From an uncultured Planctomycetales bacterium (GTDB lineage Bacteria > Omnitrophota > Gorgyraeia > Zapsychrales > Fredricksoniimonadaceae): 64,000 bases of DNA. Location of the stretch: contig CAZNDZ010000001.1 of NCBI GenBank assembly GCA_964572155.1, positions 518,518 through 582,517 on the forward strand. Direction: 5' to 3'. This document shows positions 19,447 through 46,576 of the stretch, piece after piece. Positions within the stretch are counted from its first letter, which is position 1. Every line of letters starts with the position of its first letter. The translations under genes and the position numbers were made by a program. Under the pieces are notes generated by a model that worked only from the letters and a program-made list of their open reading frames with translations, did not search any database and had not been told where the DNA came from.

Positions 19447-19574
19447 AAAAGTTCCTTCAGTTTAAGTTGCATGTTAAAGAATTGTGCAATTATAAGGGAA
19501 GCGGGCCGCTTTGACAAGGGCTTGTTTGAAAAATGCCCATTTGCCTATATTTATATAATGTGGTATCTTTTGGG

Positions 19575-22500
19575 ATGGTTCGAAAGCTGTTTTCCCTAAT
19601 ACTATGTGTGCTTTTAATGCAAAGTCCGCAACTCCATGCAGATCAGCTGGTCCTTCCTGCCGGTCAGGCAGGTTTACCGCTGCCTGGAACCATGGTGCAT
19701 TTAAGTCCTTCGGTCAATCCTCCAATCCTTAAAGGTATGAAGGTTTTTAAGGATAATCCGTTCCGTTTTGATTTTATTATGGAACATGGCCAAGACAATG
19801 TTCAAGCCAATACCTTGGTTAAATATTTCTTAGCTGCTTTAACCACACCCGAACAAGACATGTGGGTTAATTTAAGTCCCTATGAAAAAGATCGCATTGT
19901 GCCAGACGGTTTTGGTCAAACTCAAATGGGTCGCGACCTTTTGGCGCAAGATTACATCTTAAAACAAATCACCGCGTCGCTGATTTATCCTGAAGATGCT
20001 GTAGGTAAAGAATTCTGGCGCCGTGTATATGCCACAAGCGCGAATAAGAATATCCCAATCAATACATTTAATAAAGTTTGGATTGTCCCCAATAAGGCTG
20101 TAGTTTACGAGAATGCTAAAGCAGGTACAGCCTATGTTGTTGAATCCTCGCTTAAAGTTTTAACAGAACAAGATTACTTAGCCAATCAACGTAATAAGTC
20201 TGAAGAAAACAATAATCAAATCATCAAAGATGTGGTCATTCCACAATTAACCAAAGAAATCAACGAAGGCGCCAATTTTGCCCAATTGCGTCAAGTCTAC
20301 AATGCCTTGATCTTAGCAACATGGTATAAGAAGAAAATCAAAAACAGCATCCTATCCAAAGTTTATGCTGATCAAAATCGGATAGCCGGCGTCAATATAG
20401 ATGATCCAGAAGAAAAACAAAAGATCTACGCACGTTACTTAGAAGCATTTAAAAAAGGCGCGTATAACTATATTAAAGAAGACACAGACACGCTTGGCGT
20501 GTCTGGACCTAGAAAGTATTTTTCTGGCGGTATGAAGATGGATATGACGATGATGCAAGTTGTTAATAATGCTCAAGTTAAACCCCTCGATCAAGCCATG
20601 GTAATTAAGGTAAAGCTAGAAGTGGCTTCTTTATTGATGAGAGTTGCTTTGGGTTTAAGTGAACAAGAGATGAGTTTTGTTAATTATATCAAATCGCTAG
20701 ATCTAAAAAATGGCAGTGACATCTTGGCTATTGGGGCAACACCAGAAAAAGAATTTCGATATGGCAAGCAACAGGTGCGTGTCGAGTTATTATTTGCTGC
20801 GCTCGATCATCATGTGACGTTATTTCAGCCATATTGGAATGCATGGGATACGGTGCTGGATCAATCTCCTTGGAAGAAGGTTAGAAAGATCGATTATTTC
20901 AAAGAAAAGTTTACCAGCGAGAGCAAAATCGCAAAACGTTCTCAAGATGTTGTTGTCATGATGGCGGTAATGTCGGCATTTACAACAAGCATTCCTTATG
21001 AGAAAAAGCTCGACCTGATGCAAGCCGCGTTGGATGCGTTAAAAGACGATGGTTATTTGATGTTGGGTTGGTACAACTGGGGTACATATCAAAATGGTGA
21101 TATTTCAGGAGAACGAGAAGAGTTTGATAGAACAAATCGAGTGATTGAGGCATTTAAACAAAAAGGCTATGTTTTTAATTTAGATAAAGAAGGTAGCAAT
21201 ACGGCGCATCGATGGCATGTGTATAAAGTAACAAAACCCGATTCAGCCATGGCAACACCTGCAGAAGAGGCGGCTAAGAAGCGTCAGCAGGAAATGGAAG
21301 AGATGGCGGTGAAGGTAGCGACAGAGATGCGAGATGAATGGGGCGCATATCTGCGTAAGAAGAATGATTCCAATTTGAACTATCGCATTGAGAAAGCCTT
21401 GATTGATCCTGTCAAAGGCATCGTTTCGAATTATCTATTAAAGAAAATAGGGCGTCCTCAAGCGATCAGAGAATTGTATGATTTAGGTATTAATAGGCGA
21501 TTATCAAATTCTATGTTGGATTGGGCTGGGAATTTATTTTATCGTGCCATTGATGTTCAAAATAAAACGCTAACGTTACAGGAACAGGTTGTACCATTCA
21601 CATTTGATCAAATGGGTTTAGGGATTAATAAAACAGAGGCAAGGGCTATAACGGCCGTTTATACCGAATATTTAAATTTAAGTGAAGGTCAAAGTGTTGA
21701 GGTGGAGCGATATTTAGTAGGTGATAGGGATTGGCCTTATTATGATTTAAATGAACAGAAGTTATTAGATTCCATATGGATGGATGTGAAGTATAAAATG
21801 TCTGACGATGCATTTGGAGAATTCTATAAAAAAGAAATGATAACAGATATCAAAAAGCCAGAGACCGTGGCTTTTCTTAAGGCACAAGGATATTCTGATA
21901 AACAAATTAACGAGATGGCCAAAGATGCAGGCGTCTTATGGAAGCGTTGGGAATTAATTGCGGCGGAAAGTAAAGAAAAGGATAGAGCGCAAGTGGCGCA
22001 AGATTGGTTAAAACGTTTAGATGGCATGGTGTTTGAGGGGAAGAATGGCAAAAAGTATCAGATGATTAATAGTCATTCGGCCTTATACCCCGAGGAGTAT
22101 TTTATTTTGAATGAAATGGATGCGGATAACAACATCGTCCAACATAATGCAGGGTATTTTAATATCACCATCAAGGATCAGCTGATTATCCTTCATGGTT
22201 TTGCGATGCACCGCATTGAAGATCGTAAGCAATCTATTTTAAGTCAGATATTACAAATATTCCCCCAAGGGTATGACATTGAGTTTGAAGATATGACCAA
22301 TCTTCCGACGTTGAGAGATATGTTGCAGGGGATGTTGAATCAAAATTTTGAAGGCAAATTGAAGCAACGTTTAGAATTGTATGCATCGCAAAGTCCTTTG
22401 CTTTCTGAGAAATCGCTCGATGACGTCGTGATGTCCAAAGAAGAACATCAGGCATTGATGAAATTGTTGGTTGATTATCGCGATTTATCAAAACAGCCAA

Positions 22501-22889
22501 AAGCAAACTTGAAAAGCCTTGAAACAATTGCCATGGAAGGTTTCTCTGGAAAAATTCTCGGTGGTGGAGGCATAAATAGCCCAGTTCGCATAGAATTCAA
22601 AAAAATCAATGACCTTGATGTTGTAAGCCTTTATGTGAAACGTACTAAAGATTCAGCCCAACAGGTTGAAACGCCACTACAACGCGGGGGTATTGATTTT
22701 AATGCGGATAAGATGCAATTAGAGGCGCAGCATGATGATGGGGGCATTGATTTTCAACTGGATCCGGCTCAAATAAAGCAATTTCAGGATGTTGAAGGGT
22801 TTACACCCAATATTTTAAGCATGCAACCCATTCCTGCTGGCCAAGATGGCATCAATGTGGTTAAGACGTTCTTAGGGATGACCCTTTAA
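19575..22889 (+). CDS. Giant secreted protein, paralog 1 (unrecognised family)
   Basis: Signal peptide 'MVRKLFSLILCVLLMQSPQLHA'. The N-terminal module from about nt 19650 to 20520 is paralogous to the N-terminus of the 40556 gene. The C-terminal roughly 65 aa, with 'GGIDF' twice and 'DPAQIKQFQDVEGFTPNIL', is paralogous to that gene's C-terminus. Start chosen at ATG 19575 because the conserved upstream element ends there. Confidence 0.8.
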   Translation: MVRKLFSLILCVLLMQSPQLHADQLVLPAGQAGLPLPGTMVHLSPSVNPPILKGMKVFKDNPFRFDFIMEHGQDNVQANTLVKYFLAALTTPEQDMWVNLSPYEKDRIVPDGFGQTQMGRDLLAQDYILKQITASLIYPEDAVGKEFWRRVYATSANKNIPINTFNKVWIVPNKAVVYENAKAGTAYVVESSLKVLTEQDYLANQRNKSEENNNQIIKDVVIPQLTKEINEGANFAQLRQVYNALILATWYKKKIKNSILSKVYADQNRIAGVNIDDPEEKQKIYARYLEAFKKGAYNYIKEDTDTLGVSGPRKYFSGGMKMDMTMMQVVNNAQVKPLDQAMVIKVKLEVASLLMRVALGLSEQEMSFVNYIKSLDLKNGSDILAIGATPEKEFRYGKQQVRVELLFAALDHHVTLFQPYWNAWDTVLDQSPWKKVRKIDYFKEKFTSESKIAKRSQDVVVMMAVMSAFTTSIPYEKKLDLMQAALDALKDDGYLMLGWYNWGTYQNGDISGEREEFDRTNRVIEAFKQKGYVFNLDKEGSNTAHRWHVYKVTKPDSAMATPAEEAAKKRQQEMEEMAVKVATEMRDEWGAYLRKKNDSNLNYRIEKALIDPVKGIVSNYLLKKIGRPQAIRELYDLGINRRLSNSMLDWAGNLFYRAIDVQNKTLTLQEQVVPFTFDQMGLGINKTEARAITAVYTEYLNLSEGQSVEVERYLVGDRDWPYYDLNEQKLLDSIWMDVKYKMSDDAFGEFYKKEMITDIKKPETVAFLKAQGYSDKQINEMAKDAGVLWKRWELIAAESKEKDRAQVAQDWLKRLDGMVFEGKNGKKYQMINSHSALYPEEYFILNEMDADNNIVQHNAGYFNITIKDQLIILHGFAMHRIEDRKQSILSQILQIFPQGYDIEFEDMTNLPTLRDMLQGMLNQNFEGKLKQRLELYASQSPLLSEKSLDDVVMSKEEHQALMKLLVDYRDLSKQPKANLKSLETIAMEGFSGKILGGGGINSPVRIEFKKINDLDVVSLYVKRTKDSAQQVETPLQRGGIDFNADKMQLEAQHDDGGIDFQLDPAQIKQFQDVEGFTPNILSMQPIPAGQDGINVVKTFLGMTL

Positions 22890-29525: not shown

Positions 29526-29827
29526 ATAAGTACGAATTCGTTTATATCGTCGACGCACACGCATCACAAAGCGTCAAAGATGACATTGCCAAACAAGTCA
29601 ATGAAGCGCTGGTAAAATCTGGCGTTAAAGTTGTTAATACACAAGTTTGGTTTGAACGTCAAAAAATGAGCTTCTCGATCAATAAAATCTGGGAAGGCAC
29701 ATATTACATGTTGAATTTAGAAGCGCCAGCCTCAGCGTTAACGAAATTGCATGGCTTGCTTCGCATCAATGAGCAAATTTTGCGCTTTTTGACCATCAAG
29801 GTGGAAAAAACAGTCGCATCAGTGTAG
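29522..29827 (+). CDS. rpsF: Ribosomal protein bS6
   Basis: 'YEFVYIV' start. Position upstream of ssb-rpsR-rplI. Confidence 0.75.
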   Translation: MNKYEFVYIVDAHASQSVKDDIAKQVNEALVKSGVKVVNTQVWFERQKMSFSINKIWEGTYYMLNLEAPASALTKLHGLLRINEQILRFLTIKVEKTVASV

Positions 29828-29841
29828 TAAAGGAGTAGAGT

Positions 29842-30273
29842 ATGGCAAGTTTGAACAAAGTTCTTTTGATAGGTAATTTGACCAAAGATCCAGAATTGCG
29901 CTACACACCAAATGGTACAGCAGTAACGAATTTACGTTTGGCGGTTAATCGCAAGTTTAAGGATCGCAGCGGTGAATTAAAAGAAGATACCTGTTTTGTG
30001 ACGGTGACCGCCTGGGATAAGCAAGCAGAAATTTGCAATCAGTATTTGCAAAAGGGACGCGCGGTTTTTGTCGAAGGTATTTTACAAAGCCGTTCTTGGG
30101 AAACAAAAGAAGGTGAAAAACGCAGCACGATCGATGTGCGCGCTGAACGCATACAGTTTTTAAATGGCACAGGTAAAGCAGATGGTGCAAATAATGCCGG
30201 TGCAGATAATAATAAAGATGTTGAACCTCAGGATGAAGTTATCACGCCTGAAGACATTGCTTGGGAGGAATAA
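29842..30273 (+). CDS. ssb: Single-stranded DNA-binding protein (Ssb)
   Basis: '[34 protein letters not shown]' OB fold. Acidic C-terminal tail. Confidence 0.85.
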
Positions 30274-30275
30274 AA

Positions 30276-30584
30276 ATGGAAGAACGTAGAGGTGGAAGAT
30301 TTGACAAGGGTGAACGTAAGCATGGTACTAAACGTGATGCCGAAGGCGGATTCCGTCGTGGTGGCAACAGTGCTCATCGCACACCACGTGTGAGTATCCC
30401 TAAAGGTACTGAAATTAGCTACAAGAATTTACCATTGTTACAAAAATGTTTAACAGAACGCGGTAAGTTATTATCTCGCCGTTTAACCAGTAGCTCTGCC
30501 AAACAACAACGTTTGCTTAGCATGGCGGTCAAGCGTGCAAGATTCTTAGGTTTATTACCGTCTGGTTCATCAACACACAAATAA
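30276..30584 (+). CDS. rpsR: Ribosomal protein bS18
   Basis: '[49 protein letters not shown]'. Start moved to ATG 30276, which has a GGAGG RBS; this is 15 nt inside the track call. Confidence 0.8.
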
Positions 30585-30602
30585 GCATCAGGGGAGTTTA
30601 TC

Positions 30603-31046
30603 ATGCAAGTTATTTTAATGGAAAATGTTGAAAATTTAGGCAAAGTCGGCGAAGTTGTAAAAGTCAAAGACGGTTATGCCCGTAATTTCTTGTTCCCTCG
30701 TGAAAAAGCGATGGAAGCAACTGCAGGTAACGTCAAACGCATTGAAAAAGAAAAAGTAAAACGTTTGGCGCAATACGAAGAAGATCGTAAAGCTGCTCAA
30801 AAACAAGCCGATGTATTAAGCAAGTTGTCTTTAACCATTGCCGTTGAAGTCAACGACCAAGAAAAGCTTTATGGTGCGATCTCTGAAGCTGAAATCGTCA
30901 AGGCGTTTGATGCTGAAGGTAAGAAAGTTGAAAAGAAAACATTGGTGATTGAAAAAGCCATTGAGGAATTAGGCATTTTTGAAGTTGGTGTAAAACTACA
31001 TCCAGAAGTGATTGCCAAAGTCCGTTTATGGGTAACCAAGAAGTAA
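30603..31046 (+). CDS. rplI: Ribosomal protein bL9
   Basis: 'MQVILMENVENLGKVGEVVKVKDGYARNFL'. Confidence 0.85.
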   Translation: MQVILMENVENLGKVGEVVKVKDGYARNFLFPREKAMEATAGNVKRIEKEKVKRLAQYEEDRKAAQKQADVLSKLSLTIAVEVNDQEKLYGAISEAEIVKAFDAEGKKVEKKTLVIEKAIEELGIFEVGVKLHPEVIAKVRLWVTKK

Positions 31047-40477: not shown

Positions 40478-40555
40478 AATATTATTAAGTTTCGTCCTTG
40501 ATCCTCATTCTATCAAAAACTAGCGTTTATATAGATAATATGGTATCTTTTGTTC

Positions 40556-43500
40556 ATGCCTCAGAAGTTTTGGTCTTTAATTTTGATGATATGTTTATTG
40601 CCCATGCCGCAAGTCCATGCAGGAGAAAGTGTTATAAGCCTGCCTGCCGGTCAGGCAGGCCTGCCTGTGCCTGGGACCATGGTTCATTTAAGTGCGCCAA
40701 CTAACCCTGTTTTGCTTAAAGGGATAAAAGTTCATCAGGATAATCCATTCAAATTTGAATTCGTAATAGATAAAGGCACCGTAGAGACGCCATTGATGGC
40801 GTCTAATACAACGATCGAAAATGAATCTAAAAAATTAATCAAATATTTTCTTGCCGCGCTAACCATCCCTGAAAAAGATCTATGGGTTAACTTAAGTCCC
40901 TACGAAAAAGACCGCATTGTGCCTGAAAGTTTTGGCCAAACCCAAATGGGCCGCGACTTACTCGCCCAAGACTATATTTTAAAACAAATCACCGCAAGTT
41001 TGATTTATCCAGAAGACACGATTGGCAAAGAATTCTGGCGACGCGTCTATGAAGCCTCCGCAGACAAAAATACTTCGATCAACACCTTTAATAAAGTCTG
41101 GATTGTTCCTAATAAAGCCAAAGTGTATGAGAATGCAAACGCAGGCACAGCCTATGTTGTTGAATCTTCCCTAAAAGTTTTAACAGAACAAGATTACGTC
41201 GCCACAAACAAAAATACCGTACAGACGCGATTTATCGCGTCTCAATCAACCCAAAATATCATCAAAGACATTGTCATCCCGCAATTAACCAAAGAAGTCA
41301 ACGAAGGCGCCAATTTCGCGCAGCTGCGACAAGTCTACAATGCCTTAATCCTAGCAACGTGGTACAAGAAAAAAATCAAAGACAGCATTCTGGCACAAGC
41401 CTACGCCGACAAAAACAAAATCGCAGGCACCCAATATCAAGACAATTTAAACCCAGAACAAATTTATGCGCGTTATCTCGAAGCGTTTAAAAAAGGCGCG
41501 TTTAATTACATTAAAGAAACTGACATGTCAAATGGCATAACCGTTCCAAGAAAATATTTCTCCGGCGGGGCCAACCTTCAAGTTTCGCAGGCGATGACAG
41601 CATCAGACAAAGAGCCAGTAACGACGGGTCATGAGTTTGTGGTTGAAGCAAAGCTTGAATCACCATCCATGAAAGATTATCGTGAAAGGTTAAAAAATGA
41701 ATACTATCATGCGCTCTCCACAGGGCAAAAAGTTATTGATATCACCGCATATTTAGGGTCTGCGGCAGTAAAAGGATTATTTAATGATGGATTTGTGTTT
41801 GAGTTGGATGGTTTTAAGCCAGGAAATATCTCAAATGGGCTTGGTCATGGAAAAGTAGAAGATCGGATTATTATGGAAGATCAAGGAGATCAGCGTATTT
41901 TTAAGCGAATTCGTAAGAATGCTAAATATCCTGATGGAAATATTGTTGTCTATTCTATTTGGCATAAGACACAAAAGAAGGATGAGCACTCGAATGGCAT
42001 GGTATGGGAAAGAGATTATGCACCTTTTGAAGATCGGAGCATAGATATTGAAAATAAATCCCCGTTTAATTCAAAACAGCGTTTTTATGAAGATATTGAG
42101 CGGGAATATAAAGATTTTCCTGGGACTATTGGCATTGCTAAGTTAATTTTTGAAGTTAATAAATTGGAATACAATAAATCAAGAATTGGATCGCTTGTTG
42201 GAAAACGATTACGTCCAACAAATTCTGATGGAAGCAGCACGTTTTCATTGATTAAAGGAAAGATTAAGATACCTGTTTTAGGTACAACTGATGATCTGCA
42301 TACATGGGATCCGGTCATTGTTAGTGAACGCATGGATGAGAATAGCTACGAATTTACTGTCCAGTCAACAACGGATGGCATGGAGCCTATAGAGCGTACA
42401 TTTCGTATAGGGAAAAAGACAAAACAGATAATGTGGAGGGGGCGCGGTAAAACTATTTATGTCATTGAACCTGTTGATCGGGTACCTGTGCAAGTGATGC
42501 AACGTTTGATTGACGCAAGAAAGCCTTTTAATGTTACACGAACTCTTGAAGCATTGAAAGCTATTGAAGGGCAAAATATTGATGTTACTGAAGACACAGG
42601 ACAAATTAAAGTATTCTTTGGAAATGGTGAGTTTTATCGGTGGGCTGTGTTAGGCATGCGGCAAGCTGGTTGGAAGGTTAAGGTGCTGGGAGCTAAGCCT
42701 TCTAGGACAGGTGATTCAATTATTCTTTCAATGATATTAAATAAGCTTAGTGGGCAACATGTTATCAAAGTTTTTGAGTTTGGTAAGAAGGTTGCGATTT
42801 CAAAGCGTGGTTTTAAACATTTTGTGATGGAGCCTGTTAAGTTTAAAGACCTTAGACAGGCGATGAGTGTGAGCGGTTCATATTTGAAAAACGATCTAAA
42901 GTTATTGAGTTTTGATATGACAAATACGATAAGAATCGTTTTTGCCGATGGTAATATTCGATCGAATAAGTATTTAGTATCTTATTCAATTAAACGTTAT
43001 CAGGAAAGATTTGGAAAGAAGGTTGCAGTGGGCGCTGGGCGTGTATTTCATCATGTTCAATTTGATAAAGACGAAGTTGATGATGAAGAAAATAATGCAA
43101 TGTTAGCAGAAGATTTCCCTCATCCAGGAAATAAAACCAGAGTAAATGAATTGAAAGTTGAAGCGCATGATTGGCTTGTTAAATTGCTTCGACGAGAATA
43201 TGGTAATTCGGTTGCTTTTGAGACGTTGGTTGATTCGGCAAAAGATAAGAGTTTTTATTTGGGGAAATTGGGTGCAGGGAAAATTGTTTTGCCGATTTAT
43301 GCGGACAAAGATTATACGCGGCAATTGTTAGATTCTTCTTTCTCGAAGAAGGCTGATGAGCGGTCTGGTTGGGAAACATGGTTGACGAATGTGCGTATGC
43401 TTCATGGTAGCGTCTGGTTTAATTTTGTTTTGATTAAACGAGAGATGGTTGATGGGGTTGAGCAGAAAAGAAAGATTGTGCAGGAGTATGTTGTTAATCC

Positions 43501-46500
43501 GTATATCACAAGGGATGTTCTTTTAATCGATGGAAAGGATATTGATGTTTTAGAAATTGTTAAAGCTGAAAATTTTCCGTCGCGCATGTTAAGTGCGTTT
43601 ATGTTGCGCCCTAATGACTTTGAGAAATTAAAGCCAATGATGTTGGCGTTACAGGGAAGCTTTTTTGGTTTGACACATACAGCAGGTGAAGTTCTTTTTG
43701 CTGTACCTAATAAGTTATATCCTGAAAAGAATTTATTCCTGATTGATAAGTCTGCAGGGGTTGAAGATAAAACACAATGGCATGCGGTTATGAAGAAAGT
43801 TAATTTTCACGATCAAGTGGTAGATTTTACGTTTGGTGTTAGTAAAGATGATACGGTATTGCCAGATGTGAATTTTCAAGCAAGCCCTGCGCTTCAAGAG
43901 CTTTCTGTTAATATTCATGATAAGCAAAAGACCCTAGATGTCATGACCTTAGACAAACGATTGGCTGTTAGAGGATTAGAAAAATTTGCATTATTCGGCG
44001 GCAGTGCGCAGGATTTGATTAAAAGTGGGTTCACCCTTAAAGGGACATCTTTTGGGGAAGTGAATGCCGCTGGTGCCGTGAGCATAACCCCTTGGTCGGG
44101 CCATTCTTATGCAGTGCCAATATCTGGTTTAAAAGATAATGGTGGTCGCGTAGCGATCATTGATGAATATATCTATACGTACTCGCAAGGGAATAAAATC
44201 CGTTATGAATTTACAGCATCAACAATAAAAGATGGAGAAATGCCGTTTCTTCGAAAGTTTATAGCTAGTAAAAATGTTGGCGATAGTTCGTTTGAATCTT
44301 TTGATATTCAGCCAGATGAATCATTTGATGCGCAACAGGCATTAGAAGCAACGTTAAAGCATATTCAGCGTTTGAATGGCGTGAAAATTAAAGTTACGAG
44401 TGGTGAGAATCCACGTCTAAGGGTTATTAATAGAAAATTCGGATTATATTTTCATTCCATATATTTTCAAGGTTTGCAGCCAGGAACCTATGATATGAAA
44501 GTTCAACAAAAAGGAAGAACTGGGGAGTTTAAAGTAACAATGAAAGGAATGAGAGAAACATTGATATATAGGATCAATGCTGATGAACAGCTAAATTTAG
44601 AGACAAATATCAGACCATCTGGCGACGATATTGGTCAAAACGAGTTTGATAAGTTTATATTAGATTTTCGCTCAAAACATCCGAATGATTGGGTTCAAGC
44701 AATACGACAGGATGATCAAAAGCTGAGGGTATATTGGAAAAGCAGTGATGGGAATATTTATCGCACCATTGTAACGGAAGATTTTCTAAAGAGCCTTGGA
44801 TATAGGAATGTTAAATTCAAATTACTTGAAGAAGACAGCAAAGAATATGCTTTGGTTAAGGATGCGATAGACACGAAAACCATGTATGCAACAAAGCATT
44901 TTTTGAAAGTTCAAGCGCAAGATGAATTCCCGCAAGAATATCTACGAAATAAAGAAGGTCTGAAGCGAATTTATGCCGCAACACCTGCGGTTGTTGGGCT
45001 TTCTCAATTGATGTTCGAAGGAATAAAAGGCAAGGAAAGCAAAGAGGTCTTAAAATCTTTAGTTGGTCAAACATTGCCCATTACAGATAAACAAGGAAGA
45101 AGTATATTTGCGATCTTTCCTAATTTTAGCATCAATTTATCGGTCATAGGAACAATGGAAGCAGGTTGGCAGCCTACGGTTTCAAAAGTTGGGATTAATG
45201 AATTAGGATATTTTGAATTTACCATAAGGTCGACGAAGGAAGGCAAAGTGCCAGTAGAGAGAACATTTGAAATAGGACGATTCAAGAAGAAATTCACATG
45301 GAATAATCTCGACGTATTTGTCTATAACTTAATTTCTGTTGAACGTATTCGTCTCATCATTTTAAAGAGGGTCGTTAAGAAGAAGGGGCGATTCAATGCG
45401 CCCAAAGTGAGTGTTTTGTTAAATCAATTAAGGGGTGTTGATTTAGGTCCTTCTTTACCGGGGGGGCAATTAAACATTTATCTATCAACAAATAAACGGA
45501 TGGCATGGTATTTTGCATCAGAAGCGGGTCGGACGATGCGTATATTAGATGCGCGTGTTAGTGACGCTAATGATTCAGTGCTTATTACGACATTGATTGA
45601 GCATACGGTGGGATCGTATTCAATACGAGTGTATGAACTAGGCAAAGAATATGTAGTGGTCAAGAAAGGCTTAGAACACTACACATTTAATCCTGTTTCT
45701 TTTAATAATCAAAATCAAGCAATACGGTTTATTAAGCCTGCCATCATTGGTTTAGATAAGCCTTTAGCGCGCGATCCATTTCTTTCGAATGTTGTTCTTG
45801 AGTTTCCGGATGTCTTAGAAAAAGAGAAGGTAGTGGTGATCCACAATGGAGAATATTATTCACTATTTCCAAAAGAAGAAAAAATGTATGTAGATCGAAC
45901 ATTCTCAGAGGTCAGAAGGGTTTTACAAGAAAGGGCTGTTCGTGATTTTATACAAGGTGATGCGTATAACGCATTGCCACTTAATCGAAGGCTAGGTGCT
46001 TTTATTAAGTTTATTCGCTCAAATGAATACTTTCATGGTGTTGGAAATATGGGAAAGATTTGGAATGCTTTACAGAAACTTGAGGATGAAGAACTTGAAA
46101 ATGAATTAGATTGGGGAAAGATTGGTGGATATAGCATTTTGTATAAAGATTATGAGCGGTTGGTTTCTATTTTAGAGCAAAAAGAAGTTTCTGGGTTCAT
46201 CGAAGAAAAGATAGTCAAGGGTCATATAATCCCTAAGTTAAGCATCAAGTTTTTGCGACGACATTTATTACAAGAACATGCTACTTTTATGTCCCGCATT
46301 CCATTGATGGATTTATACTTAGCCATCCCAATGCAATACCGCAGTCATTTTGCAAGACCAGACGCCGCCATGCTCACAACGTCTGAATCGAATACCGGTG
46401 GGATCGATCTAACAGCCGATCAAATGAATCTCCAAACCAAATCCCAAGATCAACAATCCATGGCCTTTCATATGGATCCAGCTCAGTTGGCTCAGGTGCA

Positions 46501-46576
46501 AAATGCAGAAGGGTTTGAGCCGGTGATTGTTAGTGTTTTGCCGTTGACTGATCTGCATGCGTTTTTGACGCGTTAG
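40556..46576 (+). CDS. Giant secreted protein, paralog 2 (about 2000 aa) with internal about 170-aa repeats (unrecognised family)
   Basis: Signal peptide 'MPQKFWSLILMICLLPMPQVHA'. N-terminal about 300 aa and C-terminal about 65 aa are paralogous to the 19575 gene. At least three internal repeat copies are anchored by 'YEFT-x-x-ST-x-[DE]G-x-x-P-x-x-R-x-F'. Confidence 0.8.
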   Translation: MPQKFWSLILMICLLPMPQVHAGESVISLPAGQAGLPVPGTMVHLSAPTNPVLLKGIKVHQDNPFKFEFVIDKGTVETPLMASNTTIENESKKLIKYFLAALTIPEKDLWVNLSPYEKDRIVPESFGQTQMGRDLLAQDYILKQITASLIYPEDTIGKEFWRRVYEASADKNTSINTFNKVWIVPNKAKVYENANAGTAYVVESSLKVLTEQDYVATNKNTVQTRFIASQSTQNIIKDIVIPQLTKEVNEGANFAQLRQVYNALILATWYKKKIKDSILAQAYADKNKIAGTQYQDNLNPEQIYARYLEAFKKGAFNYIKETDMSNGITVPRKYFSGGANLQVSQAMTASDKEPVTTGHEFVVEAKLESPSMKDYRERLKNEYYHALSTGQKVIDITAYLGSAAVKGLFNDGFVFELDGFKPGNISNGLGHGKVEDRIIMEDQGDQRIFKRIRKNAKYPDGNIVVYSIWHKTQKKDEHSNGMVWERDYAPFEDRSIDIENKSPFNSKQRFYEDIEREYKDFPGTIGIAKLIFEVNKLEYNKSRIGSLVGKRLRPTNSDGSSTFSLIKGKIKIPVLGTTDDLHTWDPVIVSERMDENSYEFTVQSTTDGMEPIERTFRIGKKTKQIMWRGRGKTIYVIEPVDRVPVQVMQRLIDARKPFNVTRTLEALKAIEGQNIDVTEDTGQIKVFFGNGEFYRWAVLGMRQAGWKVKVLGAKPSRTGDSIILSMILNKLSGQHVIKVFEFGKKVAISKRGFKHFVMEPVKFKDLRQAMSVSGSYLKNDLKLLSFDMTNTIRIVFADGNIRSNKYLVSYSIKRYQERFGKKVAVGAGRVFHHVQFDKDEVDDEENNAMLAEDFPHPGNKTRVNELKVEAHDWLVKLLRREYGNSVAFETLVDSAKDKSFYLGKLGAGKIVLPIYADKDYTRQLLDSSFSKKADERSGWETWLTNVRMLHGSVWFNFVLIKREMVDGVEQKRKIVQEYVVNPYITRDVLLIDGKDIDVLEIVKAENFPSRMLSAFMLRPNDFEKLKPMMLALQGSFFGLTHTAGEVLFAVPNKLYPEKNLFLIDKSAGVEDKTQWHAVMKKVNFHDQVVDFTFGVSKDDTVLPDVNFQASPALQELSVNIHDKQKTLDVMTLDKRLAVRGLEKFALFGGSAQDLIKSGFTLKGTSFGEVNAAGAVSITPWSGHSYAVPISGLKDNGGRVAIIDEYIYTYSQGNKIRYEFTASTIKDGEMPFLRKFIASKNVGDSSFESFDIQPDESFDAQQALEATLKHIQRLNGVKIKVTSGENPRLRVINRKFGLYFHSIYFQGLQPGTYDMKVQQKGRTGEFKVTMKGMRETLIYRINADEQLNLETNIRPSGDDIGQNEFDKFILDFRSKHPNDWVQAIRQDDQKLRVYWKSSDGNIYRTIVTEDFLKSLGYRNVKFKLLEEDSKEYALVKDAIDTKTMYATKHFLKVQAQDEFPQEYLRNKEGLKRIYAATPAVVGLSQLMFEGIKGKESKEVLKSLVGQTLPITDKQGRSIFAIFPNFSINLSVIGTMEAGWQPTVSKVGINELGYFEFTIRSTKEGKVPVERTFEIGRFKKKFTWNNLDVFVYNLISVERIRLIILKRVVKKKGRFNAPKVSVLLNQLRGVDLGPSLPGGQLNIYLSTNKRMAWYFASEAGRTMRILDARVSDANDSVLITTLIEHTVGSYSIRVYELGKEYVVVKKGLEHYTFNPVSFNNQNQAIRFIKPAIIGLDKPLARDPFLSNVVLEFPDVLEKEKVVVIHNGEYYSLFPKEEKMYVDRTFSEVRRVLQERAVRDFIQGDAYNALPLNRRLGAFIKFIRSNEYFHGVGNMGKIWNALQKLEDEELENELDWGKIGGYSILYKDYERLVSILEQKEVSGFIEEKIVKGHIIPKLSIKFLRRHLLQEHATFMSRIPLMDLYLAIPMQYRSHFARPDAAMLTTSESNTGGIDLTADQMNLQTKSQDQQSMAFHMDPAQLAQVQNAEGFEPVIVSVLPLTDLHAFLTR

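Follow-up and report, generated by a model that had tools for sequence, protein, structure and literature searches.

The combination of constant trafficking parts with a swappable payload is a known scheme. MARTX proteins, which have no Sec signal and are exported by type I secretion, carry glycine-rich RTX-type repeats at their ends and possess their own cysteine protease that cuts after Leu. In polymorphic toxins (CdiA/TpsA, Rhs, LXG and MIX), only the N-terminal trunk is conserved, the toxin is situated at the extreme C-terminus, and an immunity gene is adjacent. Here, we describe a protein family in which the scheme is the known one, and in which the parts and the punctuation motif are new. 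Its starting point is the gene W1, an open reading frame (ORF) of 1118 amino acids (aa) at positions 19533..22889 of the forward strand in a 64-kb stretch of contig CAZNDZ010000001.1 (the whole stretch is called the window below), which also contains a second member, W2. W1 belongs to a large and undescribed family specific to the phylum Omnitrophota, a phylum of ubiquitous, uncultured, host-dependent nanobacteria. The family has a definable grammar, namely a Sec signal peptide, the segment LPxPGxMVxLSP, an N module ending in KYFSGG, a variable centre and a C module, with a short D-x-A-M motif as punctuation.

The likeness of this family to MARTX is a functional analogy only: in both cases constant ends frame variable, unrelated effector domains, with short inter-domain sites for a protease, which in the W1 family are putative. 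In contrast to MARTX, the W1 family possesses a Sec signal, globular novel ends and D-x-A-M junctions, and neither the MARTX repeat models nor Peptidase C80 matched W1 or W2 in Pfam and NCBIfam. With the polymorphic toxins it shares a conserved trafficking part with swapped payloads, many paralogs and orphan payloads. However, both ends of the W1 family are constant, the payload is internal and no conserved small gene follows downstream; models for TPS, RHS and PAAR from the same two databases had no match in W1 or W2. Flagellin likewise has conserved termini and a variable middle, which would allow a model with the ends together and the centre looped out, but no flagellin model matched, a Sec signal is present, and the predicted N module is globular alpha/beta instead of coiled-coil. 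Exoproteins of the type II secretion system (T2SS) are comparable in having a Sec signal peptide, which W1 carries at its N-terminus as called by rule, and in being large, folded, multi-domain proteins; in addition, one lineage of the family is situated at the end of a gsp-like operon. Known substrates of the T2SS are not recognised as having any sequence module in common, whereas a 300-aa module is common to all members of the W1 family, and most of their genes are unlinked to gsp. The ends of W1 had also been described in an earlier note on this DNA, made from the letters alone, as unlike the signatures of the type IX secretion system (T9SS), PEP-CTERM, autotransporters and RHS/polymorphic toxins, and this was borne out by the absence of any Pfam or NCBIfam match to them. 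The T9SS C-terminal sorting domain gave none at E ≤ 1, and PEP-CTERM none in NCBIfam, the C-terminus (...GF.P.I..I.P..DL..FLG..) being devoid of a transmembrane (TM) helix. Autotransporter and TpsA models had no match either, and the N module is predicted to be alpha/beta, not beta-helix.

Biologically, the family stands closest to the giant multi-enzyme proteins of Omnitrophota. The searched passages of two papers describe proteins of at least 10,000 aa ('Archaeovorins', 'multi-enzyme metabolic clusters') with many TM helices, a C39/S8 peptidase and SecA-like domains, in which methyltransferase, HATPase_c, GNAT, HAD, NUDIX, GGDEF, PPDK, GT1 and HEAT domains stand behind a signal peptide; the giants are linked to type II/type IV secretion loci, and their cleavage is suspected (bioRxiv 10.1101/2023.11.21.568195; 10.64898/2026.06.07.730766). 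Common to both groups, by these passages, are the phylum, a linkage to secretion loci and the domain content behind a signal peptide, the latter being only hinted at in W1 itself, for its first cassette c1. In contrast, W1 and W2 measure 1118 and 2008 aa and have no giant-type Pfam matches. The family is defined by the N module, the C module and D-x-A-M. Neither these modules nor the motif are mentioned in the searched passages of the same two papers.

Family size and constancy of the layout

A search with W1 revealed more than 4,292 matching database proteins (8,000 candidates scored), and at least 590 stretches were confirmed in a search of one genome per GTDB species. The best 120 protein matches, 627-1949 aa in length, align to the first ~30 % of W1 only, with 47-74 % identity, and every named organism among them is 'Candidatus Omnitrophica'. 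The best 80 of the at least 590 loci originate from metagenome-assembled genomes (MAGs) titled Omnitrophota/Omnitrophica or from third-party MAGs labelled 'uncultured Planctomycetales'. Copy numbers reach at least nine loci in one MAG and at least eight members on one 1.34-Mb contig. A phage or mobile-element origin was rejected, with only 3 loci found in 2.9 million viral contigs.

The KYFSGG element is present in all of the best 120 matches, and 121 of the 122 members examined possess both borders, i.e., KYFSGG and a GGI[DN] located 50-105 aa from the C-terminus. The centre between these borders varies from 250 to more than 2,700 aa, which results in whole proteins of 0.6 to more than 3 thousand aa, usually with no TM helices beyond the signal peptide. 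Even where N modules are most alike (74 % identity), the centres attached to them are unrelated. The proposal of a cassette-type secreted or surface protein family, in which the ends are conserved and the centre is swapped, is therefore supported, the words 'secreted or surface' being drawn from the signal peptide and from T2SS linkage in relatives. W1 itself is a member of type A as defined here, with the signal peptide, LPxPGxMVxLSP, KYFSGG, a terminal GGID...FLG and [DNS]-x-A-[MQ] punctuation.

Organization of W1

The large ORF of about 1100 aa with a signal peptide that had been reported before was confirmed, the signal peptide by rule, and the N-terminal strings quoted at that time are present in the translation. 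The true start of W1 is probably ATG 19575 (Met15), because the paralogs and all relatives align from Met15 and the same 18-mer precedes both paralogs. The parts of the gene are listed below.

19575..19640, forward strand: signal peptide MVRKLFSLILCVLLMQSPQLHA, aa 15-36, with the cut predicted before DQ (rule-based, from the family consensus)
19641..20531, forward strand: N module, aa 37-333, 63 % identity to paralog 2
20589..20600, forward strand: DQAM punctuation, aa 353-356, first cassette boundary
20592..21248, forward strand: cassette c1, orphan, aa 354-572, with homologous cassettes in relatives
21240..21251, forward strand: DSAM punctuation, aa 570-573
21249..21986, forward strand: cassette c2, orphan, aa 573-818
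21981..21992, forward strand: DRAQ punctuation, aa 817-820
21987..22658, forward strand: cassette c3, orphan, aa 819-1042
22650..22661, forward strand: DSAQ punctuation, aa 1040-1043, 12 aa ahead of the C module
22659..22889, forward strand: C module and stop, GGIDFNADKMQLEAQHDDGGIDFQLDPAQIKQFQDVEGFTPNILSMQPIPAGQDGINVVKTFLGMTL, aa 1043-1118, 40 % identity to paralog 2

Some statements made earlier about the centre and the C-terminus have to be revised. The centre of W1, described as more AT-rich than its flanks, has a GC content of 39.1 %, compared with 40.1 % in the N module (C module, 44.7 %; whole window, 42.2 %); a modest drop, from 41.5 % to 37.8 % in the centre, is found only in paralog 2. 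The centre had also been said to hold no recognisable motif, whereas in W1 it splits into three cassettes (aa 354-572, 573-818 and 819-1042), with motif sites at aa 345 (NNAQ, weaker), 353, 570, 817 and 1040. As for the two GGIDF motifs reported at the C-terminus, both are present, but only the first (aa 1052) is invariant in the family, while the second occupies the position of 'G..IKF' in the consensus.

The constant modules

A K/R n-region followed by a hydrophobic core is found in 100 of the 107 members with a full N-terminus; these signal peptide calls are rule-based and do not come from a dedicated predictor. The consensus around the cleavage site is P-(P/L)-(A/V)-Q-A before the cut and (Q/D)-(E/D)-(F/L)-x-LPxPG after it. 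Family-wide, the last Ala of the (A/V)-x-A element is situated five residues ahead of LPxPG, and by its sequence the element corresponds to a canonical signal peptidase I site.

The N module, which in W1 reads LPAGQAGLPLPGTMVHLSP ... WVNLSPYEKDRIVP..FGQTQMGRDLLAQDY.LKQITASL ... FNKVWIVP ... PRKYFSGG, has a mean column identity of 58 % in the family alignment. Invariant polar residues are very dense around WVNLSPYEKDRIVP..FG.TEMGRDLLA.DY.LKQ.TASL.YPE, and there is no invariant Cys or His in the module. The C module comprises ~65 aa at the extreme C-terminus with the consensus GGIDLt..kmnLq.qN.G..IKFh.DPAmL.QLQnApGFvPVIInIQPm.dL..FLGl. Its hidden Markov model matched 70 ORFs in the fetched loci. 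Each of these is an N-module ORF, a fragment immediately downstream of such an ORF, or an ORF truncated by the locus end.

Neither end could be placed in a described family. No match to W1 or W2 was obtained in Pfam, NCBIfam, PHROGs, PADLOC or PDB sequences, Pfam and NCBIfam returned nothing for either paralog even at E ≤ 1, and the N-module profile found nothing among PDB sequences. Profile searches with the ends and the centre, one of the checks suggested in the earlier note, led to no known family; the W1 cassettes gave only sub-threshold noise in Pfam, and the Pfam, NCBIfam and PDB searches produced no confident profile match of the ends to a characterised family. For the structure prediction and fold search suggested at the same time, an AlphaFold2 (AF2) model was made of a homolog, the shortest member P0048 (627 aa), from 69 full-length alignment rows. 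Residues 10-260 of this model, with a predicted local distance difference test score (pLDDT) of 70-93, form an alpha/beta fold that combines long helices with a pair of beta-hairpins, of which one is long, and the C module is predicted as a beta-beta-alpha-beta-alpha unit (pLDDT 57-85). Fold searches with the ends were negative, revealing no known family. AF2 applied to the N module alone, with 21 sequences, gave a pLDDT of 47 and was not usable.

In close relatives of the window proteins, a short 'P-[AS]-G-Q-[AD]-G' insertion is observed at two places, directly behind the signal peptide (LPAGQAGLP) and within the C module (IPAGQDG, LPSGQAG, LPQGAAG). The sites are aa 26-32 and aa 1101-1106 of W1 and the C-termini of the database proteins P0007, P0002, P0072 and P0122. 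The same insertion at both ends hints that the two termini may be functionally coupled.

The swapped centre and its cassettes

The centre of W1 is a true orphan in sequence, yet structured. A word-index homology search with it returned nothing, and an exhaustive phmmer search against 1.84 billion representatives found seven proteins. Five of them are large and multi-domain, namely P0001 (1707 aa), P0122 (2021 aa), P0123 (2012 aa), P0125 (1200 aa) and P0126 (3378 aa); the other two, P0121 and P0124, are short fragments. Among the large proteins, P0001, P0122 and P0123 belong to the family, P0125 has a divergent N module, and in P0126 neither end is seen in the parts examined.

Cassette c1 was found by this search in P0001, P0123, P0125 and P0126, and a comparison of members added P0005. 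Two copies are present in P0001 and one in P0005, at other positions than in W1. All three begin with D/N-Q-A-x. The end of the second copy in P0001 is DHAQ, comparable to the DSAM at the end of c1. The c1 copies are thus independent confirmation of mobile units bounded by the motif. Sub-threshold hints of a class I methyltransferase (Pfam E 0.15; PDB profile E 0.2-1.8) were obtained for c1, which is possibly derived from this fold. Relatives of c2 among the 1.84 billion representatives are limited to a part of P0122 and to P0124, and c3 has no relative there except the 198-aa fragment P0121. In addition, c2 matches P0018 weakly, and c3 has a weak local match to P0011.

P0121 matches the final ~125 aa of the W1 centre without any mismatch and shows one difference in the C module (VVKAFLG versus VVKTFLG). 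Because of this near-identity to the end of W1, a strain very closely related to the window organism has already been sampled; a full-length version of the P0121 protein was not returned by the database searches.

In other members, recognisable cassettes include kinases, GNAT, PLD, NUDIX, methyltransferases, M23, GH26 and HEAT, a content that is typical of effector repertoires. Cytoplasm-type cassettes are found as well, namely PGK, guanylate kinase, PPDK, sigma-70 region 4, response regulators and GGDEF.

The D-x-A-M punctuation

Motif statistics were calculated for the region from KYFSGG to GGID in 121 proteins and compared with shuffled sequences. D.AM was observed 263 times, compared with 11.0 ± 3.0 in the shuffles, and the relaxed form [DNS].A[MQ] 449 times, compared with 91. 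The first site lies at most 40 aa past KYFSGG in 113 of the 121 members, and the last site at most 25 aa ahead of GGID in 85 of them. On average, neighbouring sites are 220 aa apart, roughly the length of one domain. Position 4 is occupied by M in 76 % and by Q in 23 % of the sites. The density of D.AM in family ORFs is 1.49 per 1000 aa, versus 0.088 in other ORFs of the same loci; this 17-fold difference rules out that the motif is a general feature of these genomes.

At the codon level, Asp follows the background, Ala is somewhat shifted towards GCG and GCC, and the flanking DNA is not conserved. Free variation at synonymous positions and in the flanks shows that the peptide, and not the DNA, is under selection; on the same grounds a DNA recombination or cassette-insertion site was ruled out. 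The idea that natural splits of family genes fall at the motif was also dismissed, as the breaks resemble random frameshifts. Met and Gln have side chains of similar shape, and the alternation of M and Q therefore points to side-chain recognition rather than a relic start codon.

Hydrophobic, signal-peptide-like N-termini follow directly after 22 of the 449 sites. Inspection by eye revealed signals of the Sec type ending in AxA, twin-arginine signals (M..SRRxFLxxGA; for example AM-TSRRSLLLGAGFL in P0002) and one lipobox (LVGC). Such complete Sec, twin-arginine or lipoprotein-type signals, embedded behind D/N/S-x-A-M, are located in P0002 (aa ~650 and ~1000), P0003 (aa ~1270), P0018 (766), P0020 (304), P0043 (370), P0058 (362), P0088 (359), P0090 (754) and P0096 (861). 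These sites give the impression that entire pre-proteins were captured as internal units. Furthermore, the Pfam models of PGK, guanylate kinase and NUDIX units begin 14-36 aa behind the motif. Because signal-like N-termini follow the motif and enzyme models start at this short distance, it marks the N-terminal boundary of whole protein units.

The sister subfamily type B

A sister subfamily, type B, was found at the following loci.

L083, 8001-13326: type B locus
L088, 10001-12269: type B locus
L086, 566-9850: type B locus
L087, 10001-10855: type B locus with a lone N module of 284 aa, without its N-terminal third, followed by unrelated genes

The type B N module is 33 % identical to that of type A (E 3e-30) and ends in YFSGG (FWVNLRPD...RSYFSGG), while its C module shares only GGID, followed by a ~100-aa tail of different sequence. 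D.AM sites are few. Type B exists in a fused form, a 3094-aa protein, and in a split form, in which an N-module gene with its own signal peptide is adjacent to a cargo gene without one, encoding either a 1426-aa PPDK-like protein or a 411-aa protein. The split ahead of the 411-aa cargo is located at a G8 homopolymer within the Gly-Gly codons of YFSGG and may be an error or slippage, and the L087 copy may be a remnant. The coexistence of fused and split versions is Rosetta-stone evidence for a joint action of N module and cargo. The border elements that stay invariant are YFSGG and GGID.

Paralog 2, the upstream element and genomic linkage

The second member in the window and the elements upstream of both genes are the following.

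40550..46576, forward strand: paralog 2 (W2), 2008 aa as listed, probable start ATG 40556
W2 aa 1-340, N module; aa 341-1940, centre; aa 1941-2008, C module
19555..19572, forward strand: upstream element ATAATGTGGTATCTTTTG, ending 2 nt ahead of ATG 19575
40535..40552, forward strand: the same upstream element before W2 (ATAATATGGTATCTTTTG)

The earlier observation that the architecture is duplicated in a downstream gene of 2008 aa proved correct. In BLASTP, aa 15-367 of W1 align to aa 3-374 of W2 with 63 % identity (E 3e-146) and the last ~62 aa with 40 % identity (E 3e-10), and nothing significant was found between these conserved ends. W2 has only three motif sites (SQAM 346, NNAM 848 and DAAM 1938). 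Its centre contains an internal duplication of a ~260-aa unit (aa 514-772 versus 1469-1725, corresponding to 42089-42865 versus 44954-45724), with 28 % identity and E 2e-36.

The 18-mer ATAAT[GA]TGGTATCTTTTG has only two matches in the window, both directly ahead of a family gene. An element of the TATA../..ATACTT type within 30 nt of the start is present in 36 of 69 family genes versus 23 of 483 control ORFs, and Shine-Dalgarno-like sequences are depleted (7 of 69 versus 139 of 483). The pattern consists of TTG.. or TGGCA near -40, a TATA-rich box, and (C)ATACTT/GGTATCTT ~10 nt before the ATG, as seen at L004, L008, L010, L014, L015, L017, L021, L026, L028, L036, L044-L046, L058, L081 and others. 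This suggests a putative common promoter with a very short leader, and a family regulon. A sigma-54 reading of the upstream TGGCA was rejected by eye, since the -12 GC is absent.

W1 is located between ppiD and hisG. W2 is preceded by bamA-skp-lpxD-lpxC/fabZ-lpxA-lpxI-acyltransferase and followed by lysS-lolC/D, then clpC, mlaEFD, radA and cysS. With the diderm markers BamA, Skp, LpxA/C/D/I, Lol and Mla, the window is ordinary chromosomal backbone of a diderm, ~15 % of which is taken up by family genes; T2SS genes are absent from it. Between pth and dnaB, a 1.5-kb segment (29526-31027) has no ORF of at least 150 aa, no tRNA and no Rfam match.

Across 80 loci, no conserved neighbour (immunity protein, chaperone or protease) was found beyond the lineage linked to T2SS. 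In that lineage, P0004 stands directly after gspE-gspF-Peptidase_MA_2-gspG-pseudopilins-gspK-pilMN-x-TPR, and the same gsp synteny occurs in four other loci from differently named MAGs, at least five genomes in total. In this gsp-like operon (L081 1-7968; also L061, L030, L079 and L005), a Peptidase_MA_2 (zincin) gene lies between gspF and gspG, and the operon ends with the family member where the secretin would follow in operons of the pilMNOPQ type.

Proposed mechanism and alternative explanations

We infer from the sequences that W1 is exported and serves as a carrier chassis whose payloads can be swapped, with possible processing between A and M of D-x-A-M; localisation, cleavage and function are all part of this inference, to which we assign a probability of roughly one half. 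In such a mechanism, the pre-protein would cross the inner membrane via Sec, and cleavage behind (A/V)-x-A would remove the signal peptide. A conserved envelope machine would then recognise the constant N and C modules, most plausibly a type II secretion/pseudopilus apparatus, which would pass the protein across the outer membrane or hold it there. T2SS is put forward as this machine because it is the only candidate with genomic support, through gsp linkage in relatives. The central cassettes would represent the payload, i.e., enzymes, repeat scaffolds and regulators in other members and three orphan domains in W1, and would act outside the cell, on or in a host or prey. The D-x-A-M marks would be inter-cassette junctions read as peptide, most likely by a protease that cuts between A and M and thereby treats the product as a polyprotein. 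The whole would function like a MARTX or polymorphic-effector protein built from unrelated parts.

Several points weigh against this reading. Conserved Cys or His residues are absent from the N module and its fold is unmatched, so that a role in recognition or anchoring is a guess. Most family genes, including W1 and W2, are not adjacent to secretion genes, and no protease was found as a conserved neighbour across the 80 loci. Many cassettes are cytoplasm-type, nucleotide-dependent enzymes or regulators with no obvious extracellular use unless they are delivered into another cell, and the split type B cargo ORF lacks a signal peptide of its own. Furthermore, D-x-A-M also occurs within the folded C module, at about the start of a helix predicted by AF2, and may therefore be a structural capping motif instead of a cleavage site.

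The alternative that survives best, unlikely as we consider it, is a surface coat or display scaffold, the ends of which would anchor to the outer membrane or to lipopolysaccharide, or polymerise in the manner of the conserved flagellin or S-layer termini, with the centre displayed as an array of adhesins or enzymes and neither delivered nor cleaved. Conserved ends around a hypervariable centre, the signal peptide, the many paralogs per genome (at least nine and eight in the two cases given above) and the HEAT and TPR repeat centres of some members fit a coat, as do the envelope-biogenesis neighbourhoods of both window copies (ppiD; bamA-lpx-lol). However, exposed coat proteins are usually far less conserved than the N module, for which 47-74 % identity among the best 120 and 58 % mean column identity are far above the values usual for coats. 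Cytoplasm-type enzymes and regulators would be poor display cargo, the punctuation and the embedded signal peptides are left unexplained, and no SLH, S-layer, flagellin or autotransporter model matched.

Polyprotein effector delivery, in which the N and C modules would mark the chain for export and hand-over throughout the phylum, and cutting between A and M would release whole captured proteins, some of them bearing Sec, Tat or lipoprotein signals that the recipient host or prey cell would read, is a speculative and rather improbable variant. As part of it, the same punctuation could supply a cleavage map for the giant Omnitrophota proteins of 10,000-150,000 aa.

We are similarly doubtful that the punctuation serves a polyprotein expression strategy, with cutting in the cytoplasm or co-translationally, each unit going its own way (cytoplasmic enzymes remaining inside, units that carry a signal being exported), and the ends being the first and last products or a protease and its cofactor. 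The native-looking N-termini after the motif, including those of the Tat, Sec and lipobox types, would be expected in this case, but signal-like segments follow 22 of the 449 sites only, and the N-terminal Sec signal would drag the chain out unless cutting were very fast. The distance of 14-36 aa between the motif and the starts of PGK, guanylate kinase and NUDIX fits whole-protein units, and both the dominance of cytoplasm-type enzymes among the recognisable cassettes and the existence of split and fused versions of the layout are in line with it; yet the constant framing by specific N and C modules remains unexplained, and type B keeps the ends with few D.AM sites. If the N module were the protease, a protease fold or a catalytic Cys/His should be recognisable in it, and none is. 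In the searched passages on the giant Omnitrophota proteins, cleavage is suspected in print, with the sites lacking (bioRxiv 10.1101/2023.11.21.568195).

It is very unlikely that the N module itself is a periplasmic or envelope enzyme or binding protein with the centre and tail as fast-evolving appendages without payload logic. This view is favoured by the very dense invariant polar residues of D109-P153 (D, N, S, E, R, K, Q, Y, T), a 45-residue stretch typical of an active or binding site, and by the standalone type B N-module gene (L087). However, the L087 copy is missing its N-terminal third and is possibly a remnant. It would also be strange for a genome to hold dozens of paralogs of one 'enzyme', and the universality of the N module is matched by that of the C module and the punctuation.

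Significance

W1 is the local representative of a large undescribed family that comprises thousands of genes in Omnitrophota. Profile searches with the two sharply defined modules, N and C, make the whole repertoire identifiable in any genome. The shared upstream element and the T2SS linkage suggest a regulon and an export route. The punctuation predicts unit boundaries and candidate cleavage sites, information that is said to be missing in the searched passages of the study on the giants (10.1101/2023.11.21.568195). If the exported carrier is indeed loaded with payloads as proposed here, the cassettes would constitute a catalogue of the molecules, mostly orphan folds, that Omnitrophota deploy on their hosts.

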